From an uncultured delta proteobacterium (GTDB lineage Bacteria > Desulfobacterota > Binatia > UBA9968): 64,000 bases of DNA. Where the stretch lies: the NCBI GenBank assembly GCA_963840855.1, contig CAWJBB010000002.1, positions 32,001 to 96,000 of the forward strand, written 5' to 3'. A program made the translations under genes and the position numbers. The notes beneath the pieces are model-generated. The model saw only the letters and a program-made list of their open reading frames with translations, was not told where the DNA came from and searched no databases. This document shows positions 5,190-48,739 of the stretch, piece after piece. Position 1 is the first letter of the stretch; each line of letters begins with the position of its first letter.

Positions 5190-5289
5190 GTTCAATGTTC
5201 AATGTTCAAAGTTCAAGGTGGACAGCCGAAGATGCGGACCTCCCCGCTTCTGAAATTCAGGGATCGAAAACGTTGAACGTTAAACCTTG
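5190..5289. repeat. Heptamer tandem/inverted repeat element (GTTCAAN)n...(NTTGAAC)n, interrupted by IS; right arm continues 6390-6408
   Basis: GTTCAAT GTTCAAT GTTCAAA GTTCAAG then AACGTTG AACGTTA AACCTTG|IS|AACCTTG AACATTG AACC. Confidence 0.8.
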
Positions 5290-31080: not shown

Positions 31081-31183
31081 GGTTCAAAGTTTGACGTTCA
31101 AGGTTCAAAGTTAGGAATGGGGATCGATAGGGGCTAACACAAGGTCCGAAACGACGTTGAACATTGAACCTTGAACTTTGAAC
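31081..31183. repeat. Heptamer tandem/inverted repeat element
   Basis: GTTCAAA GTTTGAC GTTCAAG GTTCAAA ... TTGAACA TTGAACC TTGAACT TTGAAC. Confidence 0.8.
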
Positions 31184-41094: not shown

Positions 41095-41187
41095 AAAATT
41101 GGATAATGGAATGGTGGACTATTGGATTGATGGGCTGCGGATTTCCCAACACTCCGGCGTCATTTCGGAGGAAGGAGGTGCGTGACC

Positions 41188-42291
41188 ATGGCCAAAGCTG
41201 AAGCAAGGAAAACTCTCCAACAGTTCGACGAGGAGCTAAAACAGCTGCACCTCAGCGGGCAATGGATTTATGAAGGTTTGCTGACCCAGTGCATCGGCGG
41301 ACCAAGACCGAAAGGCGATGCGTTTATCTGGCCGTGGAAGACCGTGTTGGAGAAGTTGACCGAGGCCGGCGACGTTCTCGAGGAAAGCTTCACGGCGCGC
41401 CGCAGTCTTCTGTTCAACAATCCGGCTCTGCCCATGGGCGGCACGACGCACACCTTGCTCATGGGAATTCAGATGATCAAGGCCGGCGAAATCGCCTGGG
41501 CGCATCGCCACACGTTGGCGGCGATTCGCTTCGTCATCAAGGGCGACGGCAAGGTTTTTAGCGTCGTTGATGGCGAAAGATGTCCGATGGAGCCGTTCGA
41601 TTTAATTCTCACGCCGCAGTGGACCTGGCACGATCACCAAAACCCCACGAACGAAACGGCCATGTGGGTCGATGTGCTCGACGTGCCGTTCATGCTCGGT
41701 CTGAACCTGCCTTTCTACGAACCCTATCCGGGAGACAAGGTTCAAGCCGTGCGCCAGAAGCTGAGCGAGCACTTGCAGCAGAGAGCGGGCGTCGTTCGTC
41801 CAACCTGGGAAAAAGCCAAGCAGGAAAATCTGCCGTTGCGCTATCGCTGGAAGGATATCGAACCCCAACTGCGCGCGCTGTCCGACCAGGCGGGTAGCCC
41901 GTACGACGGCGTTGCGTTGGAGTATGTCAATCCGATCACCGGCGGGCCGACGCTGGCGACGCTAAGTTGCTGGATTCAGTTGCTGCGTCCCGGCGAACAT
42001 ACAAAGAAGCATCGCCACACTTCGAGCGCGGTTTATTTCGTGGTCGACGGGGAAGGCACGACCGTCGTTGGCGATAAGGCGATGGACTGGAACCAACATG
42101 ATTCGTTCGCAGTGCCCAATTGGGCGTGGCACGAGCATGTGAATCGTTCGAAGACGCAGGAGGCGATTCTTTTTTCAGTCAACGACACGCCGATCGTCAG
42201 CGCCTTCGGCCACTATCGCGAAGAACCGGAGAATTCACTACGCTCGGCCACAACTCCGGCAGTGCCGGTGCCAACCGCGGCGAAGGGATAA
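41188..42291 (+). CDS. Gentisate 1,2-dioxygenase family bicupin
   Basis: 'AHRHTLAAIRF', 'LTPQWTWHDH', 'HRHTSSAVY', 'PNWAWHEH'. Confidence 0.9.
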   Translation: MAKAEARKTLQQFDEELKQLHLSGQWIYEGLLTQCIGGPRPKGDAFIWPWKTVLEKLTEAGDVLEESFTARRSLLFNNPALPMGGTTHTLLMGIQMIKAGEIAWAHRHTLAAIRFVIKGDGKVFSVVDGERCPMEPFDLILTPQWTWHDHQNPTNETAMWVDVLDVPFMLGLNLPFYEPYPGDKVQAVRQKLSEHLQQRAGVVRPTWEKAKQENLPLRYRWKDIEPQLRALSDQAGSPYDGVALEYVNPITGGPTLATLSCWIQLLRPGEHTKKHRHTSSAVYFVVDGEGTTVVGDKAMDWNQHDSFAVPNWAWHEHVNRSKTQEAILFSVNDTPIVSAFGHYREEPENSLRSATTPAVPVPTAAKG

Positions 42292-42404: not shown

Positions 42405-43625
42405 ATGGATAACGCCCAATTTGCGGAGATCGCCGCCTGCATTACCGAAGCGGGTTTGGCTGGTCAATCTGAAACGGCGGCGCTTACCGGGTTCTGCGAA
42501 CGCGCTGTAGCTTTCGGATTACCGCTCGCTCGCGCAAACGTCGTCATCGACACGCTACATCCAGTTTATGAAGGCCGCGCCTTTACTTGGAAACGCCAAC
42601 AAAAGGAAACGACGCTCAGCGAGTATGGCCGAAACCCGGGGCGCTCGGAACGGTGGGAACGCAGCCCGTTTTACCGTCTCGAAGTCTCCGGCGAGTCGCT
42701 GCTCAAATGCCGGCTGACCGCGGCGACAGAGGCCATGTTTCCGATATTTTCCGAACTGCGTTTGGATGGCATCACCGACTATGTGGCGATCGCGAATCGG
42801 TTCGCCGCGGAGGGAATCATCGGCGAGATGGATTGCGTGTATTCGTCGTGGGCTACGGACGCGCCACAGGGGTTCGGCGATGCCGACGTCGCCGATCTAA
42901 GCCGACTCATGCCCTCATTCGCGCTCACGATGAAATCGGCGTCGCTGGCGCGGGTCGCGGAAACTTTGGTTGAGACCTATCTCGGGCGCGACGCGGGCCG
43001 GCGCGTGTTAGAAGGACGAATCGCGCGAGGCATCGCGGATCGGATTGAAGCAGTCCTGTGGTTTAGCGACCTGCGCAACTACACAAGGATCAGCGATTCG
43101 GCGGCGCCTGAGCAGATTATTCCTTTCCTTAACGACTACGCGGATGCGGTCATTTCGGCGATTCATCAGCAGGGGGGAGATGTCCTGAAACTGATGGGCG
43201 ACGGCGTGCTCGCCATATTCACAGCGGACGATCGTGGCCGCGCCTGCCTGGCGGCGCTCGCGGCCGCAGCCGATGCGCGCCGCGCCGTCGCGGCGGTAAA
43301 TCAGCGCCGAGCGGCGCAAAGTCTACCGACCACCGATATGTATCTCGGTCTTCACGTCGGCGAAGTATTTTACGGCAACATCGGGAGCCGCGAGCGCCTC
43401 GATTTCACGGTCGTCGGACCGGCGGTCAACGAAGTGAGCCGGATCGCCGGCTTGTGCCAATCCGTTGACCAGCCATTGCTCGTCTCCTCCGCCTTTGCGT
43501 CCGCGATCGGCGAACCGAAAAAACTGCTCGTCTCGGTCGGCCGATACGCCCTCCGCGGTGTCGGACGCCCCCAAGATTTATATACGCTCGAGAACAATGC
43601 GGGCGCCGCTGTCGTGGAGTCGTAA
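42405..43625 (+). CDS. Class III adenylate/guanylate cyclase
   Basis: 'FSDLRNYT', 'LKLMGDG', 'YGNIGS..RLDFTVVGPAVNEVSR'. Confidence 0.92.
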   Translation: MDNAQFAEIAACITEAGLAGQSETAALTGFCERAVAFGLPLARANVVIDTLHPVYEGRAFTWKRQQKETTLSEYGRNPGRSERWERSPFYRLEVSGESLLKCRLTAATEAMFPIFSELRLDGITDYVAIANRFAAEGIIGEMDCVYSSWATDAPQGFGDADVADLSRLMPSFALTMKSASLARVAETLVETYLGRDAGRRVLEGRIARGIADRIEAVLWFSDLRNYTRISDSAAPEQIIPFLNDYADAVISAIHQQGGDVLKLMGDGVLAIFTADDRGRACLAALAAAADARRAVAAVNQRRAAQSLPTTDMYLGLHVGEVFYGNIGSRERLDFTVVGPAVNEVSRIAGLCQSVDQPLLVSSAFASAIGEPKKLLVSVGRYALRGVGRPQDLYTLENNAGAAVVES

Positions 43626-43660: not shown

Positions 43661-44635
43661 TTACCGCAGAAGACTCGGCAACCGACCTTTGATGATCTCC
43701 TCCGCCTCCCTGAGTATATCCTGGACAACTTCACTGACGCTCTTAATGGCGTCGATCAAGCCTGCGTCTTGACCGAAGGAAAGCGAGGCGTTGTCGACAT
43801 CGCCGGCGGCGCGGGCGGCGGCGACCTGCTGGCCGACCTCGCGCGCGTTTTGCCGCAACGCCCATTCGCGCCCCGACCAGCGCTCGATAAACTTGTTGCG
43901 CTGAGCGCGCGACATCGCGCCTGGCCAGACCCGTTGGCTCGCTAGATCGGGAATTTCGGTCAACACGGTGTCGTGGCCGTCGCTTTTGACGATGGCTTCT
44001 TTGAAGTTCGAATGAATCGGCGCTTCCGGCGTAGCCATGAATCGGGTGCCAAGCAACACACCTTCAGCTCCAAGAGCCAGCGCCGCCGCCAGGCCGCGTC
44101 CGTCGGCGATTCCACCGGCGGAGAGAACCGGCAGCGGCGCCACCGCGTTGACCATCATCGGCACCAGCGGCAAGGACGCCATCCAAACCACATGCCCTCC
44201 GGCTTCCGTGCCTTGCGCCACAAGGACGTCAGCCCCGGCTTCCGCGGCGCGGCGAGCTTCGGGAACCTCCCCGGCCATATACATGACCTTGCAGCCGACA
44301 TCGTGGGCGCGCTGAAAATAGTCGCGCAGGTCCTGGTCCTTTCGCGCCCACGCAAAGGCGGCGACCGCCGGTCGAGCGCGGAGCGTGACAGCGAACATGT
44401 CTTCCTGAATTTGAAACAATAGATGATTGATGCCGAATGGTTTGTCGGTGCGCTCGCGAATGGCGCCGATCTCGGTGTCCAACGTCGCGGCGTTGAATGC
44501 CGAGGTGCCAAGGGTGCCGAAGCCTCCGGCATTGGATACGGCGGCGACCAGCGGAGCGGTGGTCGCGGTGCCCATGCCGCCAAGAACGATCGGATGGGGA
44601 ATGTCGAGCAGATCGCAGATGCGCGTGTGAATCAT
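43661..44635 (-). CDS. Nitronate monooxygenase / FabK-like flavoprotein
   Basis: 'AQGTEAGGH', 'AGGIADGRG', 'GVLLGTRF'. Confidence 0.92.
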   Translation of the reverse strand: MIHTRICDLLDIPHPIVLGGMGTATTAPLVAAVSNAGGFGTLGTSAFNAATLDTEIGAIRERTDKPFGINHLLFQIQEDMFAVTLRARPAVAAFAWARKDQDLRDYFQRAHDVGCKVMYMAGEVPEARRAAEAGADVLVAQGTEAGGHVVWMASLPLVPMMVNAVAPLPVLSAGGIADGRGLAAALALGAEGVLLGTRFMATPEAPIHSNFKEAIVKSDGHDTVLTEIPDLASQRVWPGAMSRAQRNKFIERWSGREWALRQNAREVGQQVAAARAAGDVDNASLSFGQDAGLIDAIKSVSEVVQDILREAEEIIKGRLPSLLR

Positions 44636-44866
44636 GACGCCTCCGATTCTCTTTAAGACTTCAGCCGTGCTTTCTAGCCCTAGCCGAATCAGCGCGCTTT
44701 GTAAAATCGAGATGATGTGAGGAAAACGTTGTGTCCGTAGCTGAACTTGAGATTACTCGGAACTGTTCACGGCAGCTTTCGGCTAGGGTTAGACTACAAA
44801 GAGGAGCTGGATTAGCTTGCGGGTCATTACGCGGCTATAATACTGCCAAGTTCACAGGAGGTTATC

Positions 44867-45469
44867 ATGTCATATATTCCATACGTCGATCTCGAAAAGA
44901 TTATCGACCCCGAGATTCGCGGGTATCTCGAGCGGGCCCGCAAGGAAGGCACGCCTCGGCCCGAGAGCCAGGCAATTCGAGCCAACAATCCCAACGTGAT
45001 CCGGGCGTTTTCGCAGGCGTGGGACCTAACGTTTCGGAACGGCGCTGTCGATCATAAACTCAAGGAAATGTGCCGGGTCTACGTGTCGAAATCCATCGAC
45101 TGCGAATATTGAGGCGTGCAGCGATCCGTCCAGGCTGGACGGCAGGGACTGTCGGAAGAGAATTACGATGAGCTCCTCAATTTTCAGCGCTCGGATAAGT
45201 TCACCGAGCGGGAGAAAGTGGCGCTCACGTACACCAGTGCGATCATCTGGAATTCCGATATTGCCGATGACGCCCTCTGGGAGAAGCTGCACCGCCACTT
45301 CACGATTCCCGAGCTCGTCGAGCTCGGATTTTTCATAGCGCTGACGTTCGGTCAGCAGCGCTGGATCAAGACTCTGGGTATCGGCCACGGTGAAATCTTG
45401 GCCGATAACGCTGCCGGACTTGCGGGTTCCCATAGCGACAAGATCGGGCTGCGGGAGACTGGGGGTTAA
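44867..45469 (+). CDS. AhpD/carboxymuconolactone decarboxylase-family selenoprotein (CxxU, Sec82), 200 aa
   Basis: In-frame TGA 45110-45112 in CEY-U-GVQRS; both halves form one CMD fold; SECIS-like hairpin follows. Confidence 0.85.
45113..45144 (+). promoter_or_regulatory. Putative bacterial SECIS element
   Basis: Stem CCGTCCA/TGGACGG (45126-45142), loop GGC starting 21 nt after UGA. Confidence 0.7.
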
Positions 45470-45660: not shown

Positions 45661-45764
45661 ATGTTCCGGCTTTTGGTTGCGGCTCTGTTGCGCTAGGGGC
45701 ACTTGTAATTGGGAGCGATAAATTGTCTTGAACTTCGTTTCCCGGGCTGTGATGGCTGGAGCCT

Positions 45765-46844
45765 ATGCCAAATCAAGAAAAAATATTTACCGGTGAAATC
45801 GGTATTCACTATCCTCTCCATGTGCTCAATCGTTACTCGCTTCCTGAGTTGATCGGGCTTGCCGAGCGGGCGTGGCAGACCATGGAAAAACTTGGCTTTG
45901 GCCAGGTTTGGACCAACGACAATCTGGAGTACCGCAGCGTGTTGGCGAGTTCGGCGGCGATCGCGGCGCGCGTACCGGTCAAGCTCGGCACTGCGGTGAC
46001 CGTCCCCTACTTCCGTAATCCCGTCGATCTTGCCATGGCCTTTGCGACGATATCGGAGCTCACCAACGGCCGGGAGATTTCTCTCGGCTTGGGTCCCGGA
46101 TCGAGGTCGATACTCAAGCATCAAGTAGAGCGCGCCAAGCCGCTCGCGATCATGGCCGAATTGGCGACCGGCTTGCGAAAACTTTTCGCCGGCGAGGCGC
46201 TCAGGAGCAGTGAAATTCCCATTCTCGCGTCCTATTTCCACATGAACGCGGAGCAATACACGCTCCGCTTCAAAACCCGGTCGCCGATCCGTCTTTACTA
46301 CGGTCCGAGTCTCCTCAAGCCTGCCGTATTGGATCTGGTGGCGCGCCACTTCGACGGCGTGATCCTGCAAACTCTCTACGGCGTCGCCGACATGGAAGCG
46401 TCGCTTGAGCGCCTGCGGTTGGCGCGGTCGCAATCCGCGCTGCGCGAACCGCTGCGCAAAGTCATGCTGCTCAACGCGTCGGTTTCGCGCGACGGCCAGG
46501 CGGCCAGGCAGCACGCCAAAAGATTCGTTTCCCACATCGTATCCGGCTGGCCGGACGAAGTTCTGAAGACAAAGGGCATCGACCCGCAGGCGATTCGAGC
46601 TGTACGGCAAGCCTACGCGGAAAACCGCGGCGTCGACTACGCCGCCTCTCTGACTCCGGACGAAGCGGTGGATCGTTTGATCATCGCGGGCACACCGGCG
46701 CAGTGTAAAGAACGGATCGCCGAACTTTTCGCGCTGGCAGCCCGCGACGGTTTCACACAGGTCACGCTTGGCGTTCCGCTCGGACCCGATATCCCGGAGG
46801 TGATCGATCTCTGGGGCACAGAAATCCTGCCGGCGTTGCGCTAG
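45765..46844 (+). CDS. LLM-class oxidoreductase (Mer/F420-type-like)
   Basis: 'LGTAVTVPYFRNP..LA....T.SEL.NGR..LGLGPG', 'IAGTP..C'. Confidence 0.85.
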   Translation: MPNQEKIFTGEIGIHYPLHVLNRYSLPELIGLAERAWQTMEKLGFGQVWTNDNLEYRSVLASSAAIAARVPVKLGTAVTVPYFRNPVDLAMAFATISELTNGREISLGLGPGSRSILKHQVERAKPLAIMAELATGLRKLFAGEALRSSEIPILASYFHMNAEQYTLRFKTRSPIRLYYGPSLLKPAVLDLVARHFDGVILQTLYGVADMEASLERLRLARSQSALREPLRKVMLLNASVSRDGQAARQHAKRFVSHIVSGWPDEVLKTKGIDPQAIRAVRQAYAENRGVDYAASLTPDEAVDRLIIAGTPAQCKERIAELFALAARDGFTQVTLGVPLGPDIPEVIDLWGTEILPALR

Positions 46845-47869: not shown

Positions 47870-48453
47870 GTGGCTAGGAAAGAGCAAAGGGTCTATTTAT
47901 TGCGCCATGGGGAGACCGAGTGGAGCCTCAATGGACGACACACCGGCGTGACCGATGTGCCACTTACCGAGAACGGGCGGATCGCCGCGCGGCGTCTAGA
48001 GCCCATTCTTGCCAAGGAGACTTTCGCGCTGGTCCTCACCAGTCCGCTTAGCCGCGCGCGCGAGACCTCCGAGCTAGCGGGATTAGGCAAGCAGGCGAAT
48101 GTCGAGGCCGACTTGATCGAGTGGAACTATGGAGAGTACGAGGGCCTCAAGACGAACAAATCCGCTTGACGAGGCCGGGCTGGTCGGTTTTTCGCGACGG
48201 CTGCCCCGGCGGAGAGACCCCGGAACAGATCGGCGCGCGCGCCGATCGCGTTCTCACCAAGGTCCATGCCAGCGAGGGAAACGTCGCCCTGTTCGCGCAC
48301 GGCCACATTCTTCGCGTACTCGCCGCGCGGTGGATCCATTTATCGGCTAGTTACGGCGAGCACTTCCTGCTCGATACCGCGACCCTGAACGTCCTTGGCT
48401 ACTACCGCGAGTCTCCTGCGTTCAAGATTTGGAACGCGCCGATCGCAAGATAA
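47870..48453 (+). CDS. Histidine phosphatase family protein, frameshift near 48160
   Basis: 'LRHGETEWS..GRHTG', 'EWNYGEYEG', 'FAHGH'. Confidence 0.8.
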
Positions 48454-48566: not shown

Positions 48567-48707
48567 GGTTCAAGGTTCAATGGCTTCGCCTGTTCAACGT
48601 TCAATGGTCAATGTTCAACGTCCCCACCTCCCGACATTAAGCCTTGAAGTCGAAACCTTGAACCGCGCCGACGGCGCCACGTTGAACTTGAACCTTGAAC
48701 TTTGAAC
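48567..48707. repeat. Heptamer tandem/inverted repeat element
   Basis: GTTCAAG GTTCAAT..GTTCAAC GTTCAAT GGTCAAT GTTCAAC ... TTGAAC TTGAACC TTGAACT TTGAAC. Confidence 0.8.
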
Positions 48708-48739
48708 GAATATCCCCCGTTGACCACGCTTGGGCTATG

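Follow-up and report, generated by a model that had tools for sequence, protein, structure and literature searches.

The window analysed here is the whole stretch of 64,000 nucleotides (C2:32001-96000) taken from a 7.1-Mb, 93-contig assembly of an uncultured delta proteobacterium, which is rated 94% complete and 8% contaminated. Between a divergent nitronate monooxygenase family gene and a luciferase-like monooxygenase family gene lies a reading frame, present as one copy in the genome, that is interrupted by a single TGA codon and followed within the coding sequence by a short stem-loop. The features of this locus are as follows.

41182-42291, bicupin gene, further upstream
42405-43625, cyclase gene, further upstream
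43661-44635, minus strand, nitronate monooxygenase family gene, divergent neighbour (Pfam NMO, 189.5 bits)
44856-44861, plus strand, AGGAGG ribosome-binding site, 5 nt 5′ of the ATG, recognized by sequence
44867-45469, plus strand, predicted selenoprotein coding sequence with a CMD/AhpD fold, 200 codons plus TAA, from read-through translation
45110-45112, plus strand, in-frame TGA, the probable selenocysteine (Sec) codon at residue 82, assigned by comparison of loci
45126-45142, plus strand, upper stem-loop of the putative SECIS element, with a 7-bp stem (CCGTCCA/TGGACGG) and the loop GGC at 45133-45135, assigned by covariation
45765-46844, plus strand, luciferase-like monooxygenase family gene, 295 nt downstream (Pfam Bac_luciferase, 118 bits)

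From the ATG at 44867 to the TAA at 45469 the sequence forms a single frame whose sole internal stop is the TGA at 45110-45112, set in the codons TGC GAA TAT TGA GGC GTG CAG CGA TCC. Under Table 11 the region is split into an 81-aa ORF (44867-45112) and one of 117 aa, which begins with the GTG at 45116, with one GGC codon between the TGA and this start. The initial annotation had joined the two same-frame ORFs into a product reading SKSIDCEY-U-GVQRS, and this read-through holds.

Several other observations were made in the window. An antisense ORF of 135 aa (45026-45433, minus strand) overlaps the selenoprotein gene, and another of 305 aa (45693-46610, minus strand) overlaps the luciferase-like gene; both are taken as spurious products of G+C-rich sequence. 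At 47870-48453 on the plus strand, an ORF of 99 aa (47870-48169) overlaps one of 110 aa (48121-48453) in another frame; together they resemble a single histidine-phosphatase-type protein cut into an N-terminal and a C-terminal half, with 'RHGETEW' and 'HGH' strings that we take to be motifs of this type. The split may reflect a one-base assembly indel or a pseudogene. A scan of the window by hairpin energy for other cases of TGA read-through returned 120 candidates and no clear signal, with the site at 45110 itself ranked 15th.

Codon 82 was compared across public genomes, scanned at one genome per species, in 80 related loci of 586 confirmed. These 80 loci span at least seven phyla and carry TGA in 46 cases and TGC in 26, while the motif pattern was unmatched in the eight that were left unscored (L037, L064, L084, L088, L092, L096, L097, and L099). 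The MAGs that carry the TGA form bear the labels Binatia, Rokuibacteriota, Ktedonobacterales and other Chloroflexota, Actinomycetota, Burkholderiales, Dormibacteraceae, Omnitrophota, and 'delta proteobacteria', and the 117 codons 3′ of the TGA are conserved across all of them. A database search with the read-through product recovered 1013 full-length homologues; among the best 120 of these, which are 175-325 aa long, residue 82 is Cys in 108, Trp in 11, and a gap in one. Homologues with Cys aligned to the TGA, which the initial annotation had named as a check on its reading, are therefore found both at the DNA level (26 of the 80 loci) and in the protein database (108 of the best 120). One database protein with Cys at this position (P0002) is 96% identical to the read-through product, which indicates that Sec is dispensable in close kin. 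In a maximum-likelihood tree of 73 rows, calculated with the TGA read as X, the window gene pairs with that of a Binatia MAG (support 100/95), and both lie inside a 27-row clade composed entirely of Sec forms (support 99/93). The tree as a whole requires at least three changes between Sec and Cys.

The same loci bear on the genes flanking the selenoprotein. The initial annotation proposed that the protein serves as a Sec redox partner for the neighbouring flavin enzymes, which would make it dedicated to the adjacent nitronate monooxygenase and luciferase-like oxidoreductase. Adjacency speaks for this partnership in the present window only, and even here the nitronate monooxygenase gene is divergent and the luciferase-like gene begins 295 nt downstream. 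When five window neighbours were compared by tblastn (E ≤ 1e-10) with the sequence within 4 kb on either side of the gene in the 80 loci (of 586 confirmed), homologues of the nitronate monooxygenase, the luciferase-like protein, the cyclase, and the membrane protein were found at none, and a cupin homologue at two. The nearest ORFs on each side in 72 loci, 141 in all, form no similarity cluster larger than 7. Pfam likewise detected an NMO or Bac_luciferase domain in none of the 89 ORFs that neighbour the 46 Sec-form loci; the domains seen there were Guanylate_cyc (7), Amidohydro_2, MmgE/PrpD, and Glyoxalase (4 each), and GNAT (3). A dedicated partnership with the adjacent flavin enzymes is thus very unlikely, and the proposal is not upheld. 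As judged from these neighbourhoods, the selenoprotein gene is an independent unit with no tie to the adjacent flavin enzymes. Neither an AhpC partner gene adjacent to the selenoprotein gene nor a halogenation (bmp-like) gene cluster was found, the latter having been sought among the window and Sec-form neighbours.

As a separate observation, an adenylate/guanylate cyclase gene adjoins the Sec-form gene in 7 of the 46 loci (L024, L025, L028, L035, L048, L060, and L069), and five of these seven cyclases have a 2Fe-2S ferredoxin domain. The adjacency probably reflects a gene order shared by related Binatia-like MAGs. The window's own cyclase (42405-43625), two genes upstream, is not similar to those seven at a tblastn threshold of E ≤ 1e-10.

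The stem-loop 3′ of the TGA begins after a 13-nt spacer, a distance that we take to fall within the accepted range for bacterial SECIS elements, and lies inside the codons for S87-R92. Folded as a single sequence, the window hairpin reaches -15.9 kcal/mol with a z-score of -0.20, and 83 of 200 shuffled sequences fold at least as well. Since this is no better than chance, the case for the hairpin is made by comparison, using a gapless alignment of the 51 nt from the TGA onward in 47 TGA forms (the window included). The helix occupies columns 17-23 with 27-33 (+17 to +33), and 98.5% of its cells are paired across the 47 sequences. Compensatory changes, in which both sides have changed, occur in four of the seven pairs; at pair 18/32, for example, CG is found in 33 sequences, UA in 8, and GC in 6. 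Cells with both sides changed number 23, compared with 3.9 in shuffles, and none of 500 shuffles gave a count as high. Sliding the partner strand by 1-3 columns lowers the pairing to 18-44%, and RNAalifold recovers the same helix from the TGA forms. The first base of the loop is an invariant G (47/47). The CCGTCCA-GGC-TGGACGG hairpin with a G early in its loop, picked out by the initial annotation from one sequence, is in this way confirmed as a covarying element.

Because the codons that contain the hairpin are themselves conserved, some of its conservation is owed to the protein. Its distribution argues against a purely protein-level explanation, because at least six of the seven pairs are kept in all 47 TGA forms (42 of which keep all seven) and in none of the 26 TGC forms, where a mean of 2.3 of the seven pairs is retained.

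The machinery for Sec insertion was sought in the same genome. The initial annotation had listed selA, selB, selC, and selD as a check; selA and selD are present, selB is present with a frameshift, and the assembly yielded no tRNA-Sec. The selA, selB, and selD genes adjoin one another on another contig (C1), where selA matches its family model at 616 bits, over the cut-off, and the other two genes are placed as follows.

C1:37592-38518, selD, matched over its full length by its family model (383 bits, over the cut-off) and interrupted by a single in-frame TGA
C1:38580-40509 (L108:10581-12510), selB, split over two frames into ORFs of 183 and 455 aa

Because the family model is matched over its whole length across the one in-frame TGA, selD is itself probably a selenoprotein. 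The selB frameshift comes down to one base near C1:39984 (L108:11985). This site was checked by aligning contigs from four other soil and sediment runs to the sel operon. The extra base is missing in each of the three runs with coverage there (X2, X4, and X6, the first through a 181-nt contig with one other difference; X1 has no coverage), and selB without this base forms a single ORF of 642 aa. No run shares more than 0.28 of the sequence words of the sel operon stretch, which indicates that the source sample is absent from these runs and that they represent relatives or other strains. The comparison shows an intact selB in close kin of this organism; the frameshift in the assembly itself is likely, though not proven, to be an assembly error.

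Aragorn at default settings found no tRNA-Sec in this 94%-complete assembly, which yielded only 39 tRNAs. Relaxed thresholds gave only noise or seven weak 'SeC' calls, none of which matches Rfam at E ≤ 1. The best match to RF01852 in the whole genome, with 150 of about 900 candidates scored, reached 43 bits against a gathering score of 47 and is a gene that aragorn calls as tRNA-Ser. A blastn search with the tRNA-Sec of a same-genus relative, together with inspection of one flanking-gene match on contig C65, gave nothing. Among relatives, tRNA-Sec was detected at 72-78 bits in 13 of 20 genomes (12 of 19 without one unpublished genome), including that same-genus relative. In a set of ten genomes picked for long contigs, selA exceeded its cut-off in all five with the Sec form and in three of the five with the Cys form.

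The contig bearing the sel genes also holds one copy of a dispersed, partly palindromic intergenic repeat (C1:40574-40690, between selB and selA), which matches 142 blastn pieces genome-wide and recurs in the window at 48574-48711, 31154-31183, and 5190-5221. The repeat has a weak match to a miRNA model on both strands, which is taken as chance, and its translation gives recurring 'TLNLEP' strings.

The alternation of TGA and TGC at codon 82, the covariation of the SECIS hairpin, and the presence of selA, selB, and selD in the genome sustain the proposal that the locus encodes a hidden C-x-x-U selenoprotein belonging to the CMD/AhpD superfamily. On these comparative grounds, we place the probability that 44867-45469 is a Sec-decoded gene, with UGA codon 82 read as selenocysteine, at about 0.9.

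Other readings of the TGA have to be weighed against this one. In some bacteria, a Cys-accepting tRNA with the anticodon UCA has been reported to recode UGA through the SelB/SECIS route, and such a tRNA would turn the product into another Cys form. In favour of this reading, the decoding tRNA was not found in the assembly, and the protein often occurs in a Cys form. Against cysteine insertion stand an intact selA and an intact, probably Sec-containing selD, as well as the standard tRNA-Sec of the same-genus relative (76 bits), which aragorn calls as SeC by default, and this reading is accordingly highly improbable. A pseudogene or base-calling error, whereby a Cys codon (TGC or TGT) has turned into a stop and the protein ends at residue 81, would be in keeping with an assembly that contains at least one probable one-base error, that in selB. 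Such an accident would leave unexplained the TGA at this position in 46 other genomes, the conservation of the 117 downstream codons, the covarying hairpin, and the place of the window gene inside the well-supported all-Sec clade, and its probability is put at next to nothing. Least credible of all are two separate small genes of 81 and 117 aa, as Table 11 would have it with a GTG start for the second, or a TGA that serves as a general sense codon (code 4/25), as the Trp in 11 database homologues might suggest, since the homologues are single proteins of 183-228 aa covering both parts, the aligned residue is Cys rather than Trp in 108 of the best 120, and TGA closes 119 of the 315 open frames of at least 350 codons in the first 12 contigs as an ordinary stop. 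All 11 Trp rows are JGI gene calls in which, we infer, TGA was translated under a code-4 model.

With UGA read as Sec, the product carries the motif E67-x11-C79-x2-U82-x3-R86. For profile searches Sec was written as Cys (P0001), and the sequence then passes the Pfam CMD model (PF02627) at 29.7 bits against a cut-off of 23, with residues 43-123 aligned to positions 2-82 of the 84 in the profile. No NCBIfam model exceeds its own cut-off; TIGR00778 (ahpD_dom) gives 13 bits against 27.8. Close homologues are named 'alkylhydroperoxidase family enzyme' by JGI, which we take to be the name of COG2128. An alignment of 32 sequences contains 46 invariant columns that span residues 4-164 on both sides of codon 82, including the blocks G28-T-P-R-P-E-S-Q35, E67, C69, C79, Y81, Q85-R86-S87, and G162-Q-Q164. 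A short helix (residues 80-83) begins at the C-x-x-U motif. The AlphaFold2 model calculated from this 32-row alignment (pLDDT 89.3) is all-helical. Its best full-length matches in Foldseek (TMq 0.68-0.74) are Bmp8 (6ohi/6ohj), the 'peroxidase-related' proteins 2prr, 2oyo, and 2pfx, and the Deinococcus AhpD 6k40.

A profile search of the PDB aligns C79 and U82 with the CxxC of PA0269, Atu0492, and Bmp8, and R86 with the His of the PA0269 CxxCxxxH motif. The AhpD signature E-x11-C-x2-C-x3-H is consequently unmatched as a whole: Glu67, Cys79, and Sec82 are kept, and the residue four positions after Sec is the invariant Arg86. The initial annotation had already remarked on QRS in place of the His of CxxC-x3-H, and the alignment of R86 with the PA0269 His and the invariance of Q85-R86-S87 in 32 sequences agree with it. 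The Arg is also found in the Cys forms, which makes it a trait of the family that is not tied to Sec.

Comparison with known members of the superfamily places the protein near several of them and within none of the curated families beyond Pfam CMD. The AhpD of Mycobacterium tuberculosis is an alkylhydroperoxidase with the motif E-x11-C-x2-C-x3-H; the window protein preserves the Glu-x11-Cys-x2-Cys/Sec spacing but replaces the AhpD His with an invariant Arg, and AhpD entries in the PDB are weak sequence matches (5dik, E 0.18; 6k40, E 0.5). By sequence, the protein is matched best in the PDB by PA0269 (2ijc, 2o4d, 7xw1) and Atu0492 (2gmy), at E values of 6e-11 to 5e-9, with the CxxC aligned and TMt values of 0.77-0.82. 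These proteins of about 145 aa carry CxxCxxxH and do not have the N-terminal 60 residues of the window protein, which include the invariant GTPRPESQ. The best NCBIfam match, NF053654 ('YciW-related (seleno)protein'), covers residues 13-170, but its score of 55.2 bits is below the cut-off of 310 and leaves the window gene outside that family. Among full-length structural matches Bmp8 ranks first (TMq 0.69-0.74; profile E 1.5e-9), at an identity of 17-18%. Its CxxC aligns with the window motif, and in Bmp8 the residue at +4 is Phe, not His, with a His at +3. Bmp8 is described, in the portion of PMC7918430 concerned with it, as a CMD homologue and debrominase that removes bromine from bromopyrroles.

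Two CxxU selenoprotein families of this fold have a longer history. The relevant sections of the Sargasso Sea survey introduced them as 'AhpD-like' (COG2128) and 'CMD domain-containing' (pfam02627) selenoproteins (PMC1088965, 2005), and those of the GOS survey counted them as AhpD-like 1 and 2, the second being commoner in non-marine GOS samples (PMC2398784, 2008). Both families are listed in the pertinent parts of two reviews (PMC9312934, 2022; PMC13188914, 2026) and of BSepDB (PMC13326102), and in one of these TIGR01926 is given as the model for the AhpD-like family (COG2128/YciW) (PMC13188914). As these sections describe the AhpD-like family, the window protein shares with it the superfamily, the length class, a CxxU with Sec in second position, and widespread Cys homologues. 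It differs in having Q-R-S and no His after the motif and in belonging to a subfamily of soil lineages (Binatia, Rokubacteria, Ktedonobacterales, Actinomycetota, and Burkholderiales) rather than marine ones. The protein scores 27.3 bits with TIGR01926, a model named for peroxidase-related enzymes, below the cut-off of 81.8, and its fold matches 2prr, 2oyo, and 2pfx at TMq 0.68-0.73. The CMD-like family ('AhpD-like 2') is defined in the same sections by its Pfam domain and motif only, and by that description alone the window protein resembles it, as it likewise passes Pfam CMD and has CxxU. The statement of the initial annotation that AhpD-like selenoproteins are described in general is thus correct and, going by the 2005 text, dates back to that year (PMC1088965); since CxxU selenoproteins of both families have been in print for that long, the kind is already known. 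Measured by sequence against the curated cut-offs, the window protein is part of a subfamily in which Arg takes the position of the AhpD His and which passes only Pfam CMD. A literature search found no paper on selenocysteine in Binatia.

A mechanism can be outlined on this basis. SelB and Sec-tRNA would recode the UGA at codon 82, recruited by the 17-nt stem-loop that follows 13 nt after it within the coding sequence. Sec82 and Cys79 would then form a C-x-x-U centre, with Glu67 ahead of it at the E-x11-C distance known from AhpD and the invariant Gln-Arg-Ser standing where AhpD has its proton-relay His. In AhpD, the second Cys of the CxxC is the nucleophile, and U82 presumably occupies its place. 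As the nucleophile of a thiol/selenol oxidoreductase, the U82 selenolate would attack a substrate that is oxidised or electrophilic; a selenenylsulfide with C79 would result, which a general thiol reductant could resolve, and Arg86 may give electrostatic help instead of His. The enzyme could reduce hydroperoxides, sulfenates, or disulfides, or else small electrophilic molecules. Such a mechanism for U82/C79 seems reasonably likely by analogy; it draws on family resemblance to AhpD, of which the defining His is absent, and with Bmp8 as the best full-length structural match, the chemistry may be other than that of a peroxidase. A bolder and rather improbable proposal is that the clade defined by GTPRPESQ...C-x-Y-U/C-x-x-Q-R-S is a distinct class of CMD-fold enzyme, widespread in uncultured soil phyla, in which an Arg-assisted selenolate acts on electrophiles. 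One example of such chemistry could be reductive dehalogenation, or a detoxifying reduction, by a Sec-dependent enzyme, which would parallel Bmp8 and the Sec-dependent deiodinases. If true, this would make the clade an enzyme class other than a peroxidase helper.

The selenoprotein gene opens no new kind of system, and its immediate meaning is one of annotation. Standard gene callers split it into fragments of 81 and 117 aa, and the same is expected in the 46 related genomes, so that the gene offers a clean annotation correction. The finding identifies the organism, which has its nearest gene relatives among Binatia MAGs, as a selenium user and adds a soil-lineage subfamily to the AhpD-like and CMD-like CxxU selenoproteins. 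With Arg in place of His and at least three exchanges between Sec and Cys, this subfamily would provide a compact system in which to ask what Sec buys over Cys in the CMD fold.
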